Below, piece by piece: positions 34,595-63,800 of a DNA stretch of 64,000 nt. Position 1 is the first letter of the stretch; each line of letters opens with the position of its first letter. The position numbers and the translations under genes are program-made. Origin of the DNA: Octopus vulgaris (taxonomy: Eukaryota); NCBI GenBank assembly GCA_951406725.2, contig OX597816.1, positions 35,402,001 through 35,466,000 of the forward strand. The letters run 5' to 3'. The notes beneath the pieces were generated by a model. The model saw only the letters and a program-made list of their open reading frames with translations. It searched no databases and was not told the origin of the DNA.

Positions 34595-34723
34595 TATATA
34601 CACACACACACATATATATATATATATACATATAATATAATTCGAGACAAAACCACTATTTTAAAACCAAACAAGGAAAGACTTAATCAATACATAAAAT
34701 TTTAATATAAATTAAATAAACCG

Positions 34724-34766
34724 CCACTACAAATGTTTCATGTCTGCTCCGACAATCTTCAGGTGG
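34724..34766 (-). ncRNA. Minimal type I hammerhead (left arm of palindrome)
   Basis: Reverse complement of 34818-34860. Confidence 0.75.
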
Positions 34767-34817
34767 ATTTTCGATCTTCTAATCAGTAACAAATTTACTG
34801 ATTAGAAGATCGAAAAT

Positions 34818-34860
34818 CCACCTGAAGATTGTCGGAGCAGACATGAAACATTTGTAGTGG
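34818..34860 (+). ncRNA. Minimal type I hammerhead
   Basis: ccac-CTGAAGA-t tgtc ggagca gaca t-GAAA-c attt-GTA-gtgg: stems I, II and III all pair. Confidence 0.8.
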
Positions 34861-35038
34861 CGGTTTATTTAATTTATATTAAAGTTTTATGTATTGATTC
34901 AGTCTTTCCTGTTTGGTTTTAAAATAGTAGTTTTGTCTCGAATTATATTATATAATATTTTACTATAAAATTGGATTTAACCCTAAATCTGATTTTTCCC
35001 TGTAATTTTGGATTCATTCCCTAATATTTATTATTATT

Positions 35039-37676: not shown

Positions 37677-37771
37677 CATATAATATAATTCGAGACAAAA
37701 CCACTATTTTAAAACCAAACAAGGAAAGACTTAATCAATACATAAAATTTTAATATAAATTAAATAAACCG

Positions 37772-37814
37772 CCACTACAAATGTTTCATGTCTGCTCCGT
37801 CAATCTTCAGGTGG
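37772..37814 (-). ncRNA. Minimal type I hammerhead (duplicate, one stem II mismatch)
   Basis: Copy of 34724-34766 with gacaatc changed to gtcaatc. Confidence 0.65.
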
Positions 37815-37865
37815 ATTTTCGATCTTCTAATCAGTAACAAATTTACTGATTAGAAGATCGAAAAT

Positions 37866-37908
37866 CCACCTGAAGATTGTCGGAGCAGACATGAAACATT
37901 TGTAGTGG
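37866..37908 (+). ncRNA. Minimal type I hammerhead (duplicate)
   Basis: Same sequence as 34818-34860. Confidence 0.8.
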
Positions 37909-38087
37909 CGGTTTATTTAATTTATATTAAAATTTTACGTATTGATTAAGTCTTTCCTTGTTTGGTTTTAAAATAGTGGTTTTGTCTCGAATTATATTAT
38001 ATAATATTTTACTATAAAATTGGATTTAACCCTAAATCTGATTTTTCCCTGTAATTTTGGATTCATTCCCTAATATTTATTATTATT

Positions 38088-38184
<97 letters not shown>

Positions 38185-41349: not shown

Positions 41350-42298
41350 ATATATATACCACAAAAACCCGACCAAAGCACAAACACGTTCAACCAAGAG
41401 ATACTAAAAGTACTGAAAGACATCTCCTCCAGCATCACGGTGTTATCCAACACAATTGACGAGATACAGACCTACACCAAGGAAACGCTTGAAGAAGGAA
41501 GACAAACGGAAGAAATAGCAATTGTCCAAATCCTCAATCAGTTATAAAGAACTATAGAAACAGCGATGCTCCAGAAATAGGAGCAAAAATGGAAAGCTGA
41601 ACGAGATAACATCAACCTGCAAAGAGAAATCTCTGCAATCGAAAACACTCTTAAACGTATATGGCACCCAAACTTCACAGCCTGTAAATTTTACTTTTGG
41701 ATCTACAATAAAAATAATAGCAAAGCAGACATATATGAAAAATGGCTTATTTCAATGGTTGAACACAATGGTTGTGTTCAACCATTGATAAATTTATCGC
41801 CTGTGAATATGAAATTCCTTGGAAATTTACACCTACACCATTGGAAATTGTGCATCTATACAAAGGATTAATTCACCCTCTCTGTAATGCTAATAAGCAG
41901 GAATTGAAACCTACCTCGTTGTAATTAACAATGGATAAATTTGCCTTCTGTGAGTATGTAATCCCTCATCATATCTCTGGAAATTCATATATGCACTATG
42001 GATTGGGTCACCTTCTCTGTGATGCTGTTAAGACTTTTTTAAAATTCTGTGATAAGACTGTACATCATCTTTAAAGAACTTTAATGAACTTTTGAAATCT
42101 GTTTATGTTACTTAATTATCTACATTACTTCATGAGTATAGCCTCAACCACTAGGATGTCTAGAGAACTCACATGTATTTTAGCTGATGAGTACGGGACA
42201 CGTTTATATGCTGTAATTTTTGCAACTTTTAATAAAACCTGTCCTTGTATGAAACGATTGTACTAAAAACCTATCCATTCTTGTTGCTTCATTCTCGC
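41350..42298 (+). mobile_element. Internally deleted PLE: N-terminal ORF remnant followed by a terminal repeat with a hammerhead
   Basis: Broken ORF ...LKRIWHPNF...FYFWIYNKNNSKADIYEKWL resembles a PLE N-terminus; hammerhead just before (TA)n. Confidence 0.55.
42178..42268 (+). ncRNA. Type I hammerhead with 60-nt stem II domain
   Basis: ttttag-CTGATGA-gtacgggaca...tgtccttgtat-GAAA-c gatt-GTA-ctaaaa. Confidence 0.85.
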
Positions 42299-44560: not shown

Positions 44561-45181
44561 CAACAATTGAAGGTAAAATTAATTAGTTATTAATCAATTT
44601 CACCAAGTATTCAGTATGTAAAAGGACCATTTAAGGCGAATTCAAAATATTACATTATATAACAGGGCTTAGTAAAATAAATTACTTTGCCACATACTGA
44701 ACTCATTAGAAATAGCAGCCAAAAAAGTTTTTTTAGCTATTTCTAATACTTAAAGAAAATTTCTCTTAGATAGTGCTTACTCAGAATAACCCACGAAGGT
44801 ATGGGGGTAAAAAACATTAAAAAATCACAAGTGCAAAGATTATTTGAGAACGTTACGTTTCTAGATCAGCCAAATAAAATTCGACATTTCTTTCGTCAGC
44901 CCAAAATTTCTTAATTTGGATTTGGAAACACTGAAAGTAGGAACATACCCTTTTGGCGACTTAACACCTCAGATGACCCGTTCAAACTGACAGTGCCAAC
45001 AAATTCAAAATATGCAAGCGAAGAATTCCTGCTCTCCCCCCCCCCCACCACCACATCCACGTGGGCTAAACTAGCAAACACCATATTTTAGCGGTGAAAA
45101 CCGAGGCAATAAACAGAGAGAAATGAATTATAATTTCAACAATTGAGGGTAAAATTAATTAGTTATTAATCAATTTCACCA
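44553..45181 (-). mobile_element. PLE-derived/retrozyme-like unit: 576-nt monomer plus ~50-nt terminal repeat
   Basis: aatttcaacaattga.ggtaaaattaattagttattaatcaatttcacca at 44556 and 45132; partly homologous to the 593-nt unit (57120-57220); contains a hammerhead. Confidence 0.72.
44843..44905 (-). ncRNA. Type I hammerhead (GUU site)
   Basis: Minus strand: tttggg-CTGACGA-a aga...tct a-GAAA-cgtaac-GTT-ctcaaa. Confidence 0.7.
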
Positions 45182-53099: not shown

Positions 53100-53104
53100 G
53101 TGAT

Positions 53105-54830
53105 ATAAAATCAGAGGCGGCGACGATAGATTACATCGATATAAAGGAAGACGATGTAACCAAGGCTATAGATGAAATGAAAACAGACTCAGCTACTGGC
53201 CCCGATGGATTCCCGGCAATCCTCCTAAAAGCATGTAAGAGAGTCCTAGCAAGACCACTGCAGTTCCTCTTTCAGAGCTTCCTTGCAGCTGGCAAACTTC
53301 CAGGAAAACTGAAGGAAGGTAAAATATGCCCCATTCATAAAGGAGGTAGCAGAGCGGAAACCAAGAACTATAGACCTATCTCTCTGACCTCACACATCAG
53401 CAAGGTCATGGAACGAATAGTCAGAAGGAAGCTAATCACCTTCCTTGAAGAGAATGACTTGCTGCCCGACACCCAACATGGTTTCCGACCAGGGAGAAGC
53501 TGTTTAACTCAGCTCCTACAACACTATGACTGGGTGCTGAAACGGCTGCTCAACCACTCAAATGTGGAAGTGATATATCTCGACTTTGCAAAGGCCTTTG
53601 ATAAAGTCGATCATGGAATGATATGTCACAAACTGCATGATCTCAACATAGTTGGAAAACTGGGAGAATGGCTTCATGACTTTCTGAAGGATAGAAGTCA
53701 GGTGGTAGTAGCCAATGGGGCCACCTCCATTAACACACAAATAGTGAGCGGTGTTCCGCAGGGCACTGTTCTGGGACCACTACTGTTCATAATGGCCCTC
53801 TCAGACATGCCCTCAGCCACGCAGAGCGCCACGATCACAAGTTATGCAGATGATACAAAAGTTTCACAGGCAATACAGAACCCTGAGGACACTAAACAAC
53901 TGCAATGTGAGCTGGACGAAATATACAAGTGGGCTGAAAAGAATATCATGCAGTTCAATGCTGGAAAGTTTCAAGCTTTATACTATCAGCATGCAAAACT
54001 GAATGCAATACCCAATGAATACACTGGACCCGGAGGGATTGCAATCCCAGAGGCACAATCAGTGCGTGACCTGGGTATTCACATGAGTGATGACGCGACC
54101 TTTCATGTACATGTTGCTAAACTGACAATGAAATGTAGACGGCTGGCTGGCTGGATTCTTAGAACCTTTAGAACAAGAGAACAAGAAACCATGATGGTCC
54201 TCTGGAAGACACTTGTCCTAAGCCACTTTGACTATTGCTCTCAGCTATGGTCACCATCCAGTGTCAAGTTAATCACAGAACTTGAGGCGATCCAACGAAG
54301 CTACACAAAGAAGATAGCCTCTATGCAGAATGTAAGCTACTGGGAAAGACTCAAGAGATTAAAATTATATTCCTGGAGCGTAGGCGGGAAAGATATGCCA
54401 TAATATACATCTGGAAGATCCTGGAGGGAAGTGTCCTGAACTTTGGCATCGAGAGTTACGCAAATGCCAGAACTGGGCGCCACTGCGTGGTGCCTAGGAC
54501 TCCAAACCTGCCATCAAGATGTAGGACAAGATTCTGTGATAGCCTGGGCTTCCGAGGCCCACAGCTCTTCAATATCCTCCCGAAGAACCTGAGAGACCTG
54601 CATGGGGTGGATACAGATGTCTTTAAAATGAAGCTGGATCTCTTCCTTTCAGGTGTCCCAGATGAACCAACTTCACGGCGGGAGGGGCAGATGAGGGCAG
54701 CTGCATCGAACTCTCTCATGCACCAAATAGCAGTTGCTAGAAAGCCTCCATGAAGTGAAACCAACTAGCAACACCAAATAGCGGTGCCCCAGCATGGCCA
54801 CAGCTCATAAGCTGAAACTAGAATCAATCA
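53105..54830 (+). mobile_element. 5'-truncated young CR1-like LINE (RT ORF 53177-54403, frameshift near 54375, C-terminus to 54753)
   Basis: GPDG, NYRPISL, QHGFR, YLDFAKAFDKV, GVPQGTVLGP, YADD; 3' UTR tail followed by (AATC)n; inserted in (TA)n. Confidence 0.95.
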
Positions 54831-54877
<47 letters not shown>

Positions 54878-55000
54878 CAATTTAGGAATGACCCTAACAG
54901 GTCATTCGTCCACCAGAAAAGAGCAGCCATAACTCACACCGCCAAGTAGTAGTAATTCAAAAATTAGGTGAAAATTCAAAAACATTTACCCTAATTCATC

Positions 55001-55098
55001 TTTTAGACGTTGCAACGTTTCTGTGTCATTAATGATTAAATTAGCTTAATTAAATTAAATTAAGCTAATCTACCATAGGTTACACTTCATCAGTAAAA
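55001..55098 (-). ncRNA. Type I hammerhead (473-nt family, inverted copy)
   Basis: Reverse complement of 55391-55488. Confidence 0.85.
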
Positions 55099-55390
55099 AC
55101 CTGGGATAGACAAATATACACGAGGCGTCTGTATCGATGCCTAGGGAATATCTGTCTTAAAATTTTCAAGACTGACGTATTCGCGCCAAACTTATCAGCA
55201 GTAAATATAAACTGCCGATTCAATCTCAGAATTATTCAGAAAATTATCAATTAGTCAATTTAGGGTAGCAAAAAATTCAATAGAAATTTATCGCTACCAA
55301 CGGCCTAGTGGAAAAGAGAAAATAGTCAACGACTAAGTATATAAATATAACAATTTAGGAATGACCCTAACAGGTCATTCGTCCCAGGTT

Positions 55391-55488
55391 TTTTACTGAT
55401 GAAGTGTAACCTATGGTAGATTAGCTTAATTTAATTTAATTAAGCTAATTTAATCATTAATGACACAGAAACGTTGCAACGTCTAAAA
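55391..55488 (+). ncRNA. Type I hammerhead (473-nt family), predicted cleavage after GUC at 55483
   Basis: tttta-CTGATGA-a gtgt...acac a-GAAA-cgttgcaac-GTC-taaaa; stem III is the perfect 12-nt palindrome ACGTTGCAACGT. Confidence 0.88.
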
Positions 55489-55863
55489 GATGAATTAGGG
55501 TAAATGTTTTTGAATTTTCACCTAATTTTTGAATTACTACTACTTGGCGGTGTGAGTTATGGCTGCTCTTTCTGGTGGACGAATGACCTGTTAGGGTCAT
55601 TCCTAAATTGTTATATTTATATACTTAGTCGTTGACTATTTTCTCTTTTCCACTAGGCCGTTGGTAGCGATAAATTTCTATTGAATTTTTTGCTACCCTA
55701 AATTGACTAATTGATAATTTTCTGAATAATTCTGAGATTGAATCGGCAGTTTATATTTACTGCTGATAAGTTTGGCGCGAATACGTCAGTCTTGAAAATT
55801 TTAAGACAGATATTCCCTAGGCATCGATACAGACGCCTCGTGTATATTTGTCTATCCCAGGTT

Positions 55864-55961
55864 TTTTACTGATGAAGTGTAACCTATGGTAGATTAGCTT
55901 AATTTAATTTAATTAAGCTAATTTAATCATTAATGACACAGAAACGTTGCAACGTCTAAAA
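55864..55961 (+). ncRNA. Type I hammerhead (473-nt family), GUC at 55954-55956
   Basis: Same motif as 55391-55488. Confidence 0.88.
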
Positions 55962-56337
55962 GATGAATTAGGGTAAATGTTTTTGAATTTTCACCTAATT
56001 TTTGAATTACTACTACTTGGCGGTGTGAGTTATGGCTGCTCTTTCTGGTGGACGAATGACCTGTTAGGGTCATTCCTAAATTGTTATATTTATATACTTA
56101 GTCGTTGACTATTTTCTCTTTTCCACTAGGCCGTTGGTAGCGATAAATTTCTATTGAATTTTTTTGCTACCCTAAATTGACTAATTGATAATTTTCTGAA
56201 TAATTCTGAGATTGAATCGGCAGTTTATATTTACTGCTGATAAGTTTGGCGCGAATACGTCAGTCTTGAAAATTTTAAGACAGATATTCCCTAGGCATCG
56301 ATACAGACGCCTCGTGTATATTTGTCTATCCCAGGTT

Positions 56338-56435
56338 TTTTACTGATGAAGTGTAACCTATGGTAGATTAGCTTAATTTAATTTAATTAAGCTAATTTAA
56401 TCATTAATGACACAGAAACGTTGCAACGTCTAAAA
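56338..56435 (+). ncRNA. Type I hammerhead (473-nt family), GUC at 56428-56430
   Basis: Same motif as 55391-55488. Confidence 0.88.
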
Positions 56436-56835
56436 GATGAATTAGGGTAAATGTTTTTGAATTTTCACCTAATTTTTGAATTACTACTACTTGGCGGTGT
56501 GAGTTATGGCTGCTCTTTCTGGTGGACGAATGACCTGTTAGGGTCATTCCTAAATTGTTATATTTATATACTTAGTCGTTGACTATTTTCTCTTTTCCAG
56601 TAGGCCGTTGGTAGCGATAAATTTCTATTGAATTTTTTTGCTACCCTAAATTGACTAATATATATATATATATATATATATACGCGGGTGGGAAGGGGCT
56701 GGTGACACAATCTTTTCATTCACACATTGAATTTGGTGATACTAGTTGCGGATTCTAGCTCGCTCTGATACTGAGTTGAGTTGATGCCTTCTAGTATCTC
56801 AAAATTCAATATATAATCATTTATGATTATAGTAT

Positions 56836-56936
56836 TCTACGCTGAAGAGAAAAGAAGTTCTTGGTAAGATAGAATTATTTAATATTTAATTCTTATGCTT
56901 TCCTAAAAACTTGATTTCGAAACGTACGTCCGTAGA
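56836..56936 (+). ncRNA. Type I hammerhead (593-nt family), GUC at 56928-56930
   Basis: tctacg-CTGAAGA-gaaa...tttc-GAAA-cgtac-GTC-cgtaga; stem III palindrome ACGTACGT. Confidence 0.9.
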
Positions 56937-57428
56937 TAACTTAAAATTGTATGATAGTTTGCCGTCAATTCATTCCCTCTTACCTGTTTGTGTCTGCCTT
57001 CCAATTGCTGTTTTTACTGAGATCTCCTTTTTAGTAGAAGAAATAGCTATAACTCTTTGACTGCTATTTCTAAATTCGGTATGTGGTAAGGCAATTCGTT
57101 GCCAAACCCTTTATTGCTTAGTATTACTTAAATTTTCCTCGAATGAGGCTTTTACATGCCGAAGACTACTTGGTGTAATTGATAATTATTCCAAATTAAT
57201 TAATTTCACCCTTCATTATTACGGATAACCATATTTTATCTCAGTAGATGACCATAGCATCTTGTTTTGTCTACACGCGGGTGGGAAGGGGCTGGTGACA
57301 CAATCTTTTCATTCACACATTGAATTTGGTGATACTAGTTGCGGATTCTAGCTCGCTCTGATACTGAGTTGAGTTGATGCCTTCTAGCATCTCAAAATTC
57401 AATATATAATCATTTATGATTATAGTAT

Positions 57429-57529
57429 TCTACGCTGAAGAGAAAAGAAGTTCTTGGTAAGATAGAATTATTTAATATTTAATTCTTATGCTTTCCTAAA
57501 AACTTGATTTCGAAACGTACGTCCGTAGA
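57429..57529 (+). ncRNA. Type I hammerhead (593-nt family), GUC at 57521-57523
   Basis: Same motif as 56836-56936. Confidence 0.9.
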
Positions 57530-57714
57530 TAACTTAAAATTGTATGATAGATTGCCGTCAATTCATTCCCTCTTACCTGTTTGTGTCTGCCTTCCAATTG
57601 CTGTTTTTACTGAGATCTCCCTTTTTAGTAGAAGAAATAGCTATAACTCTTTGACTGCTATTTCTAAATTCGGTATGTGGTAAGGCAATTCGTTGCCAAA
57701 CCCTTTATTGCTTA

Positions 57715-57772
<58 letters not shown>

Positions 57773-57775
<3 letters not shown>

Positions 57776-57965
57776 GGTCCCGGGTTGATTCGGGGTTAAC
57801 CACAATAAGTAAGGTACTCAATACATAGCAGAGTAAAATTAATTTATTATATAGAAGGAGCTTCTACAGGACTAGTACTGTTTCATTCAAGAGAAATCTT
57901 CAGAGCTTCCTGAAGATTTCTCTTGAATGAAACAGTACTAGTCCTGTAGAAGCTCCTTCTATATA

Positions 57966-60823: not shown

Positions 60824-63800
60824 TTAGAGTATGTTTTGTTGTGGTCTGTATTTTTGAATAAGATTATTTTCCCTATTTATTCGTGTTTGGTCTGTGGTGT
60901 TGTCCGAGCATTTGTATAGTGGGTAGACTAAGAATTCGGGAGACTTATTGTGTGCACAGAGGCCTAAGTGTCCACTAAGCGGTATTTCTCTTGTGGAGGG
61001 GTCCCTCAGTTGTTGGCGGTGAACTGTCATTCTTTCTCTGAGGATAAGGCTCGTTTGCCCTATGTAGTGTTCGTGGCACCCTTCACACCTTATGAGGTAG
61101 AGTAAATTTTTTGATGCGCACGTGAAATTATTTTTTACGATGAATGTGTGTCCCGACCGGATCTTGTACGTCGATCCCTCAATGAGGTGGATGCAAGTCC
61201 TGCAGTTGGGACGACCACATTTTTTGACGGTGGGCGGTGGGTTTGTGTTGTGTAATTTTGCGTTGGTGAGGAGGTTTTTTAGGGATTTAGGTTGTCTCTT
61301 ACTTTTTATTATTTTATGAGCTGCCAGTAATTTTTGTAGGCGTGGGTCTTGATTTAGCTGTGGAATATTGTTGTATATAATAGTGTAAGCTCCTGCATTT
61401 CTTGGGTTGTGTGTTCAGAGATAGGGGAGGCTATTTACTGTACTGTGGATGTGTTTAGGTTTTCGTAAGTCTTGAGTTTTAATTGATTTGCCCCGTTCTT
61501 ATCCGTTGTCCACTAGTGATGTCGGGTAATGTCCTTCGAGAAGAATTGCCCTTAGTTCCCGAAGTCTTCTATTTCGTGTTGTGTCATTTGGGACAATTGT
61601 GCAGATTCTTCTGGCTAAGTTGAAGGGGATATTTGTCTTTGTGTGTTTTGGGTGATTGTAGGTGAATAGATGGTATTGTTTAGAGTCAGTGGGTTTGTAA
61701 TGGATGTCAGTTTCAATGTTCACGCCCTTTTTAATGATTAGAATGTCAAGAAAGTGAGTTGGTCCTGACAATATTCCATTGTGAATTGAATGTGGTTATT
61801 TACACTGTTGATAAGGTTTTTGAAGTCAATAAGTTGGTCGAGTGTGTGGGACCATAGGATGAGGCAATTATCTACGTAGCGTTTCCAGTTCCCCAACAGG
61901 TATTTGTGGAAAGACTGGCCGTACTTATATTTGGATTTTTCATAAATATGTGATAGGCCATCACCAGGTTTGCATAGGTAGGGGCAACTTTCGTACCCAT
62001 TGCAATTCCTGAAACCTGTCTGTAAGTGTTATTATTGAAATTCATGAAGTTGTTTTGCAGAATAAATTTGAGCCCCTCAATGATGAATTCTTTTTTTATT
62101 CTTCCCGGGATCTCATTGGGATATTTATCCAGCCAGAATTTAATGGCTTCCAGTCTATATTCATGTGGGATTGTGGTGTAAAGGTTTATTACATGAAAGG
62201 GAACGATTAAAGTGTCTTTATCGGTATGTTTGGGGAGATGATTTAATTGGTCCAGGTCATCTCTTACAATGCTTGGAATGTGTTTCAGTATTGGTTTTAG
62301 GATGATATCGATAAATTTGCTAAGTCTGTGTGTTTCACAACTTGGGCCAGCCACTATTGGTCTCAGTTTGAGATCAGTGGGATGTGGTATAGTGATGCAG
62401 GTTGAAGTGGACTTTTTGCAAGCTTCTGTGATAATTTCACTCTTGTGTATTTTTGGAAGCCCATAGAGTGTGCTGGTTTTGCAATTAAAGTTTGTTATGA
62501 AGTCGCATTCCTTTGATGTTAAGTCATTCCGGTGTTGGTAAATGAGTGCCTTCAGTTTGGTCGTTGTTTTGGATTGCTGGTAGTCGACTACTCTTCCATA
62601 GTATGTAGTATCCTCTAAAAGGTGAGATACAGAGTTTTTATATTGCTCAGTATTCATGATAACGACCGTACTACCCGTATCTGCTTCCTTTATTGTGACG
62701 TCATGATTGTCTCGTAGCGTATGGATGATTTCCCATTCTCTTTTACTGGTGTTGGGTTTGGGTTTAGGTTGTGGAAGTTCACCATAAGGGAAGTTTGAGA
62801 TGTAATCGCAAAATTTGTCTCAGGTTTTGTTTTTGCCTTTTATGGGATTATAGCTGCTTTTGTTACGGACCATTGATTCGTCGTTATTATTAGTTTCTTT
62901 GTCAAAAAATTCCTCTGTGAGGAGTAATTTTCTGCAAAATGTGAGATGTCATCCTGTATTTCCCTCAGGTTAGGGTATTTCGGAGTTGGGGTGAATTTTA
63001 GTCCTTTTGAAAGGATTTTTATTTGTGGTGTCGGCAGATTTAGGTTAGAGAGATTCACTATTTTTGGTTTTTCGGGGTTGGTATCTACCATCTGGTGTCG
63101 TGGAAACTGATGCCCTTGCCTAAAAGAGGAATCCTGGGGATTCTTCTATCTGCGGTATTTTGCTGTGTGTGGTTCTTTTCCCCGTTGAAATGTTGTCTGT
63201 TGAAGAGGTTTGGGTTGTTCCAGAGTCTGGGTTGTTGGTGTGGCCTCCTGGAAGAGTTTTGGTTACTCCAGGGTCTGGGTTGTTTGTCCTGGGTGTAATG
63301 TTGGTTCCTTAGAGTGGGTTGGAAAACACATTCATGGTTTAGAAGGGAATTGTTATATGTTGGGAGAGAACTGAGTTTGGAACGGTTTGGGTTGGAATCT
63401 ACAATCATAGTTCAGAGATAGGTTTCTAAGTGATGGGTAGGATCTCCGATCCTGGAACGGTTCTTGTGTGTGTTGGGGTCTACATTGTCTGGTAAAGTTT
63501 TGTCTTGTGTTGGTGGGTGTCTCGTTTTTTTTGATGGGATTGTAGTGCTGACTGTAAGTTCTGTTTTTGTTGTCAATGTTAGGGGTGGTGTGTGTTCGGT
63601 GTTTTGTGATTTGTTTTCTTTGTTCTTGGTGAGGGGTGTGAGTTGAAGTTGATATTTTAAAATATGGGTTGCTTGAATGGTGTTCATTTTTTAACTCTGT
63701 TTCATAATTCGCGAACCAGCTGTTTTTTTCCATTCGCTGGAGGGATGTTAGTTCTTCATCCTCGCAGTTTTTTCTCCAGAGATTGGTTTTATCAAGGAGT

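Follow-up and report, generated by a model that had tools for sequence, protein, structure and literature searches.

The 64,000-nt window of Octopus vulgaris DNA analysed here (the whole stretch, on contig OX597816.1) contains one recent insertion of a dispersed non-coding hammerhead family. In our judgement, held with good though not full confidence, it is a non-LTR retrozyme copied by a Penelope-like (Neptune-type) reverse transcriptase (RT)-endonuclease from a probably circular, unit-length RNA. The components of this explanation differ in strength: mobilisation of a non-autonomous family by a Penelope-type enzyme is very probable, a circular template is somewhat favoured, and the origin of both arms from one RNA molecule is about an even bet. 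The most informative feature of the insertion is its end rule: the outer end of one arm lies at a fixed site A of the unit and that of the other arm at a fixed site B. Such a two-end footprint is likely the trace left by a Penelope-type enzyme that copied, from the two cut DNA strands, an RNA which was probably circular.

The insertion lies between (AT)21 and (AT)12 and is composed of an inverted arm (54877-55384) followed by a direct arm (55382-56659), which represent 1.07 and 2.7 units, respectively, of a non-coding unit. The repeat period is 473/474 nt, with 99% matches over the 2.7 direct copies. The two full units show a single difference, an indel in a T-run, and the third unit carries one substitution in addition. 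The longest stop-to-stop frame in the array does not exceed 61 aa. Unit positions are numbered from the reference 55382-55854, and the features are as follows.

54834-54876, no strand: left (AT)n target tract, (AT)21
54877-55384, minus strand: inverted arm, 508 nt, unit 196-473 plus 1 to about 231; outer end at site A
54878-54886, minus strand: end motif CCTAAATTG ahead of site A, with hairpin A before the motif, as read from the sequence
55000-55101, minus strand: hammerhead copy of the inverted arm; predicted cut after (-)55006
55382-55384, no strand: junction between both 5'-truncated arm ends, 3-nt overlap
55382-55854, plus strand: unit 1, 473 nt
55388-55491, plus strand: type I hammerhead 1, with core 55396-55402, extended stem II, GAAA 55468-55471, palindromic stem III and predicted cut after 55483
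55581-55610, plus strand: site A module, hairpin A and CCTAAATTG, unit 200-229
55663-55705, plus strand: site B module, hairpin B and CCTAAATTG, unit 282-324
55855-56328, plus strand: unit 2, 474 nt, with hammerhead 2; predicted cut after 55956
56329-56659, plus strand: partial unit 3 (1-330), with hammerhead 3 and predicted cut after 56430; outer end at site B, motif at 56645-56653
55484-56430, plus strand: two unit-length RNAs (55484-55956 and 55957-56430) predicted from the cut sites, if the array is transcribed and cleaved
56658-56682, no strand: right (AT)n target tract, (AT)12

The exact site-A base of the inverted arm is masked by TA microhomology (unit 230-242). An earlier, sequence-only reading of this DNA had located the insertion inside (TA)n, with cores 473/474 nt apart, and both points agree with the (AT)n flanks at 54834-54876 and 56658-56682 and with the array period. 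The four cores (CTGATGA starting at 55396, 55869 and 56343 on the plus strand and at 55093 on the minus strand) and the predicted cuts (after 55483, 55956, 56430 and (-)55006) are likewise in agreement with it. It had also counted four units; four cores are indeed present, but not four whole units, the inverted arm being a circularly permuted 508 nt and the direct arm 2.7 units. The three consecutive cores of the direct arm give the arrangement that defines a retrozyme, namely at least two consecutive non-coding units with a type I hammerhead.

The left (AT)n tract is a landing site for successive insertions. A LINE-type RT fragment (53102-54753, plus strand; RVT_1, E 6e-31) ends just before it. 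Directly beside the insertion, at 56679-57718 (plus strand), lies a second hammerhead tandem family with a 593/594-nt unit, cores at 56842 and 57435, a G-C stem II base and an 8-nt palindromic stem III that needs a dimer; this family has at least 180 matches in the genome, from the best 40 scored of 1991 candidates. Short palindromic elements with hammerhead-like cores on both strands are found between (TA)n at 57773-57960, 34600-34990 and 37700-38100, the last two being near-identical copies, and they are likely tiny two-armed insertions of other Penelope families. Further hammerhead motifs with a long stem II lie upstream of (TA)n at 42184 (plus strand) and 44849-44899 (minus strand), the latter within a repeat of roughly 600 nt that resembles the 593-nt family by eye.

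Each unit had been described as carrying a complete type I hammerhead. The core and the three stems bear this out, but the motif is not fully canonical, having an A-A stem II base, an extension of about 55 nt on stem II, and no Rfam match. The sequence-only reading had proposed a comparison with Rfam hammerhead models, and none of them matched at gathering score or at E<=5; in the window, Rfam gave no match at gathering score, and E<=5 returned only unrelated sub-threshold hairpin matches. A strict hammerhead descriptor recognised the real unit but none of its 5000 dinucleotide shuffles. The CUGANGA / GAAA / UH core is unbroken in 143 of the 147 family units covering it. All 147 have the A-A mismatch at the stem II base in place of the standard closing pair (usually G-C), and this base is G-C in both the 593-nt family and a sister family described below. 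An axolotl hammerhead with U-U at the stem II base is reported to cleave nevertheless (PMC7229834). Just outside stem II, unit positions 27 and 81 swap jointly between A-G and G-A in 12 of 147 units, possibly as a non-standard pair.

Stems I-III co-vary within the family and with the sister family, in which the core is unchanged and the stems are different but still paired. The closing pair of stem III (93-98) is T-A in 85 units, A-T in 62 and mismatched in none, which preserves the palindrome. All three stems form in a consensus fold of nine family units and one sister unit; 9 of 16 stem pairs are changed on both sides among these 10 sequences, a number reached by 0 of 500 shuffles and by no slid control, with the double changes deriving mostly from the single sister sequence. 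As far as such comparisons go, the compensatory changes indicate selection on the predicted ribozyme fold. The fold of the monomer is better than that of 100 out of 100 shuffles (z = -5.4). In the circular monomer, folding gives stem I a pair probability of 0.0, and the hammerhead can be imposed only at a cost of 5 kcal/mol. Stem III is predicted at -0.9 kcal/mol and 4 pairs alone versus -17.9 kcal/mol and 12 pairs as a dimer, which would make cleavage in multimers the likelier mode. Of the Xenopus retrozyme dimers, only 1 of 9 is reported to have cleaved in vitro (bioRxiv 2026.07.22.740005).

A search of the genome (2.8 Gb), in which the best 39 of 1508 candidates were scored, returned at least 207 matches to the unit; a 27-nt core pattern had 121 exact matches. 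The analysis was conducted on 58 loci: the window, the 38 best matches and 19 loci picked by the core pattern (another pick, a duplicate of L027, was excluded). The arrays are dispersed, as in a multicopy mobile family, and 93-100% identical, and (TA)4+ is found within 30 nt of 108 of 116 array edges. The unit closes on itself, head to tail. In none of the 58 loci is there a junction between the unit and an RT-endonuclease ORF, nor an RT plus GIY-YIG ORF between terminal repeats as in an autonomous Penelope-like element. The proposal that this is a young, mobile and non-autonomous element is supported by the identity of the dispersed arrays and by the lack of a linked ORF in the 58 loci, where copies are not confined to terminal repeats of coding elements; such confinement is what the sequence-only reading had named as contrary to it. 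The sister family, sampled at L132-L148 and L045:3999-4217, is older. Its unit of 470 nt is 76% identical over unit 121-335, the hammerhead is canonical, and an end motif particular to this family stands at both sites. Five sequencing runs (X16-X20), labelled organisms B, C and D, contain 34-49% of the words, and related families may exist in other species.

Among 94 scored outer ends, 91 map to one of two sites, 48 to site A (unit 230-242) and 43 to site B (unit 325-335), about 97 nt apart, each directly after a hairpin plus CCTAAATTG. Two-armed insertions combine one end of each type at 34 of 37 loci, the other three having one odd end, and neither A+A nor B+B occurs; this pairing has a P of about 6e-11 under independent arm choice. 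One of the odd ends (L023, position 146) is preceded by a similar word. On inspection, some one-armed loci (L029, L054, L120, L125 and L126) have a second arm of 10-20 nt and of the opposite type. Inner junctions occur at any unit position, with 0-7 nt of overlap or inserts of up to 23 nt. These 34 of 37 two-armed loci thus have the inverted 5'-truncated arm and the tail at one end that characterise non-autonomous Penelope insertions. Mobilisation by a Penelope enzyme, as the sequence-only reading proposed, gains support from the two fixed internal end points and from the inverted 5'-truncated arm in (TA)n; the A+B rule itself does not figure in that reading.

The same rule was found in relatives. 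In the sister family, both end motifs read CCTTATATT, and therefore the motifs at the two sites have changed together; A+B pairs are found in 5 of 7 two-armed loci, the others being one B+B (L146) and one B with an odd end. The ends of the 593-nt family (16 distinct loci) lie at about 446 and at 541-556, about 100 nt apart, and 8 of 9 two-armed loci are A+B. In a coding RT-GIY-YIG family of 781 aa (Neptune-type), two ends 40 nt apart were recognised, with one of each in L094 and L071, the two loci with both ends visible on which the rule for the coding element rests.

The search for coding partners scored the best 150 of 6136 and the best 150 of 9401 candidates. No homology to the unit was detected in 50 GIY-YIG loci (L059-L108; BLAST and a three-family DNA profile) or in 40 loci of a second clade (L179-L218; BLAST and DNA profile). 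One GIY-YIG locus has a match to the 593-nt family, located outside the coding element, and RT-endonuclease fragments near L121, L050, L037, L024 and L123 were judged to be separate insertions. Two coding families, both young and with ends in (TA)n, are candidates only: one of 781 aa with a 40-nt tail, and one of about 1100 aa with one visible end. Both are Penelope-type with many open ORFs (L089-L097 and L101-L102 for the 781-aa family, which has an upstream frame; L199-L205 and L218, about 1050-1200 aa, for the other), and in both a U replaces the first C of the hammerhead core. The Neptune label was given from (TA)n targeting and from the Cys motif that the coding families have between RT and endonuclease, compared with the description in Craig 2021 (PMC8557442), rather than from a tree. 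Within the window, a broken Penelope-type RT-GIY-YIG remnant (60827-63124, minus strand) shares 51-57% identity with the 781-aa family in its main pieces.

Sequence variation was followed in the first 39 loci. Substitutions amount to 0.27% within arms and 2.1% between loci; opposite arms differ by 0.39%, a value slightly raised by the sister piece that L045 contains. At sites with at least 3 units, and with the L045 sister piece excluded, 142 cells contain variants common to at least two loci; in 130 of these the variant is fixed in all units of the insertion, in 2 it is partial and in 10 it is single. Whether a variant is private to one locus was judged among these 39 loci, sampled from 1508 candidates. 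Of the private variants, 19 are fixed (17 of them on both arms, in 8 loci), 9 are partial and 60 are single. At L042, lineage-specific variants are fixed in 9 of 9 units on both arms; at 3 loci, a variant is found in two units of one arm only. Since variants are fixed across both arms and arms range from 0.1 to about 7 units, some step must multiply one unit, and both arms share its variant. Arm lengths are uncorrelated (rho 0.17, n=34). Two loci alternate as would be expected from a two-unit circle: L021 between T and G at position 210, unit by unit and in phase whichever outer end is taken as the start, and L049 at position 272. T-run lengths examined for phase gave no signal. Alternation is only partial at L051 and L034, and these two loci, together with the three arm-restricted ones, point to some local duplication or mixed templates.

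The cleavage site is gapless in all 147 units (0 gaps), and only 1 of 74 arm 5' ends lies near it, with no region avoided and no clustering there. Gapless sites and scattered 5' ends fit a ligated circle or an uncleaved multimer, and template jumping from one cut, linear monomer to the next was therefore rejected.

The most far-reaching form of our explanation is a double-primed rolling circle, offered tentatively and at a little less than even chances: a dimeric Penelope RT-endonuclease would bind both hairpin-plus-9-mer modules of one circular hammerhead RNA, each subunit priming one nicked strand at its own site. The preferred explanation itself would proceed in steps. By analogy with related retrozymes, array transcripts would self-cleave at the hammerhead and the monomers would be ligated into circles. 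A Penelope protein, likely a dimer, would then nick both strands of (TA)n, as suggested by the biochemistry of Frangieh 2024 (PMC11167929), in which the protein nicks and extends both strands at AT-rich DNA and a dimer is predicted. Reverse transcription would be primed at site A by one nick and at site B by the other, both sites having a hairpin and CCTAAATTG immediately 5' of them; the fixed ends and their A+B pairing are observed. As is observed, each arm copies 0.1-7 units without a break at the cleavage site, and the two cDNA ends are joined via short overlaps or small inserts.

The main competitor, which we consider unlikely, keeps the Penelope enzyme but has it copy uncleaved linear multimeric transcripts, with a weak or dispensable hammerhead and with the uniformity of arrays owed to a small number of uniform source loci, to template jumps or to subsequent gene conversion. 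Uncleaved RNA explains the seamless cleavage sites equally well, the non-canonical stem II base and the unfavourable monomer fold suit it, and so do the read-through type records among the RNA-like runs described below; moreover, hammerhead mutants of the anole element insert in vitro unaffected (PMC11167929). However, 5'-truncating copying of linear templates only shortens arrays, yet arms reach about 7 units, and the variants of L042, fixed in 9 of 9 units across arms, need a unit-multiplying step, while the compensatory stem changes indicate selection on the ribozyme fold. Far less probable is a scenario discussed in the retrozyme study of 2026 (bioRxiv 2026.07.22.740005), according to which a coding Penelope-like element would have left solo terminal repeats or truncated 3' ends behind, and unequal crossover would have expanded these locally into minisatellite arrays. 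Signs of local duplication at a few loci (L051 and L034) speak for such expansion, but the 58 loci show no ORF linked to the unit, the RT-endonuclease matches in their vicinity are separate neighbours, the unit closes on itself head to tail, and subfamily variants are fixed over inverted arms at dispersed loci.

Hardly credible is a non-autonomous DNA transposon using the 9-nt end motif as terminal inverted repeats, or an assembly artefact. The same 9-mer does stand inverted at both outer ends within TA; yet internal length and inversion point vary from locus to locus, one-armed copies are common, the motif is internal to the unit, and the structure recurs on many contigs with locus-specific variants. 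For the palindromic junctions of Penelope-like elements, the account of Arkhipova 2013 (PMC3846280) favours self-priming on an antisense template, which would leave two fixed outer ends on different sites unexplained. Copying of a probably circular retrozyme RNA by a Penelope-type enzyme remains the explanation that we prefer.

Fourteen sequencing runs guessed to be RNA (X1-X14), none of them recorded as RNA, contain 26-76% of the sampled words. Four of these guessed runs were examined as contigs only. Two of them, X2 and X3, each contain a 504-nt record, and as 504 is 474 plus 30, this would be a closed loop of 31-letter words, although linear multimers give the same loop. In X2 it was the sole record examined and opens 2 nt from the cut site. 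X3 also has a record running from site B into (AT)n (read-through), and X6 has one across an inversion junction. Position 56328 is C in all four runs versus A in the window copy; the signal, indirect in any case, therefore comes from other copies than the one in the window. Record 12 of X3 has seven listed A-to-G differences in 60 nt (window 56480-56540, depth 2.9), as from hyper-editing of double-stranded RNA between the arms, but this may be an unsampled genomic variant.

The class of non-LTR retrozymes is already known, and the tail-at-one-end pattern has been noted before qualitatively. Like the metazoan members as described in PMC7229834 and bioRxiv 10.64898/2026.07.22.740005, the family consists of tandem units that are non-coding and each carry a type I hammerhead, has low GC, is dispersed and co-occurs with Penelope-like elements; its 473 nt lie inside the 51-972 bp range given in the latter. 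Fixed end points, inverted arms and single-variant insertions are not among the features read in those accounts, and the hammerhead of the octopus family is set apart by its long extension on stem II and its A-A base. Compared with the minimal hammerheads of Penelope elements, as presented in PMC4209133, it shares the U-rich/A-rich stem I, the extra base after CUGANGA and the palindromic stem III, but has one more A between the closing C of stem II and GAAA.

The resemblance to EN+ Neptune-type Penelope-like elements, from what is described in PMC3846280 and PMC8557442, extends to head-to-head inverted arms, a tail at one end only, microsatellite targets and short junction overlaps. An inverted truncated copy with a 30-40-bp tail at one end is recorded by Arkhipova 2013 (PMC3846280) and Craig 2021 (PMC8557442). 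By contrast, the octopus insertion has no ORF, its arms are multimers of a closed unit, and its tail is about 97 nt versus 30-40 in the Neptune-type elements described (40 nt in the coding family of this genome). The insertion shows the Penelope hallmark of an inverted copy with a tail, here in a non-LTR retrozyme. In vitro, Penelope RT starts at two internal RNA sites bounding the genomic tail; for the anole element, uncleaved RNA is the dominant substrate and start sites are alike on the two strands (PMC11167929). Like Poseidon_Ac of that study, the family has two internal start sites near a stem-loop, AT-rich targets and both strands in use. Whereas Poseidon_Ac shows no strand difference in its start site in vitro (PMC11167929), the arms differ here in 34 of 37 loci, each site lying behind a repeated 9-nt motif.

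Neither this family nor a counted A+B rule was found in the literature searched, with most subscription papers, Repbase, Dfam and several supplements outside the search. The finding bears on two linked questions, namely whether retrozyme circles serve as templates of genomic copies and how the Penelope tail and inverted arms originate. Circles were proposed as templates by Cervera and de la Pena in their accounts of 2014 (PMC4209133) and 2020 (PMC7229834), and animal retrozymes are linked to Penelope terminal repeats in the account of Li, Clavereau and Pollet 2026 (bioRxiv 10.64898/2026.07.22.740005). The family offers countable footprints, in the form of the A+B rule, which has no A+A or B+B exception in 37 two-armed loci, of a motif whose two copies have changed jointly in the sister family, and of insertions built from a single variant. 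An in vitro system for Penelope is named as a next task in Craig 2021 (PMC8557442), and a 473-nt RNA with two defined start modules makes a small substrate for a direct test. The family is therefore of use as a model; as a kind of system it is not new. If the double-primed rolling circle is true, one mechanism would account for the Penelope tail, the inverted arm and the tandem arrays of retrozymes, and these insertions would be the first genomic footprint of retrozyme circles as templates.
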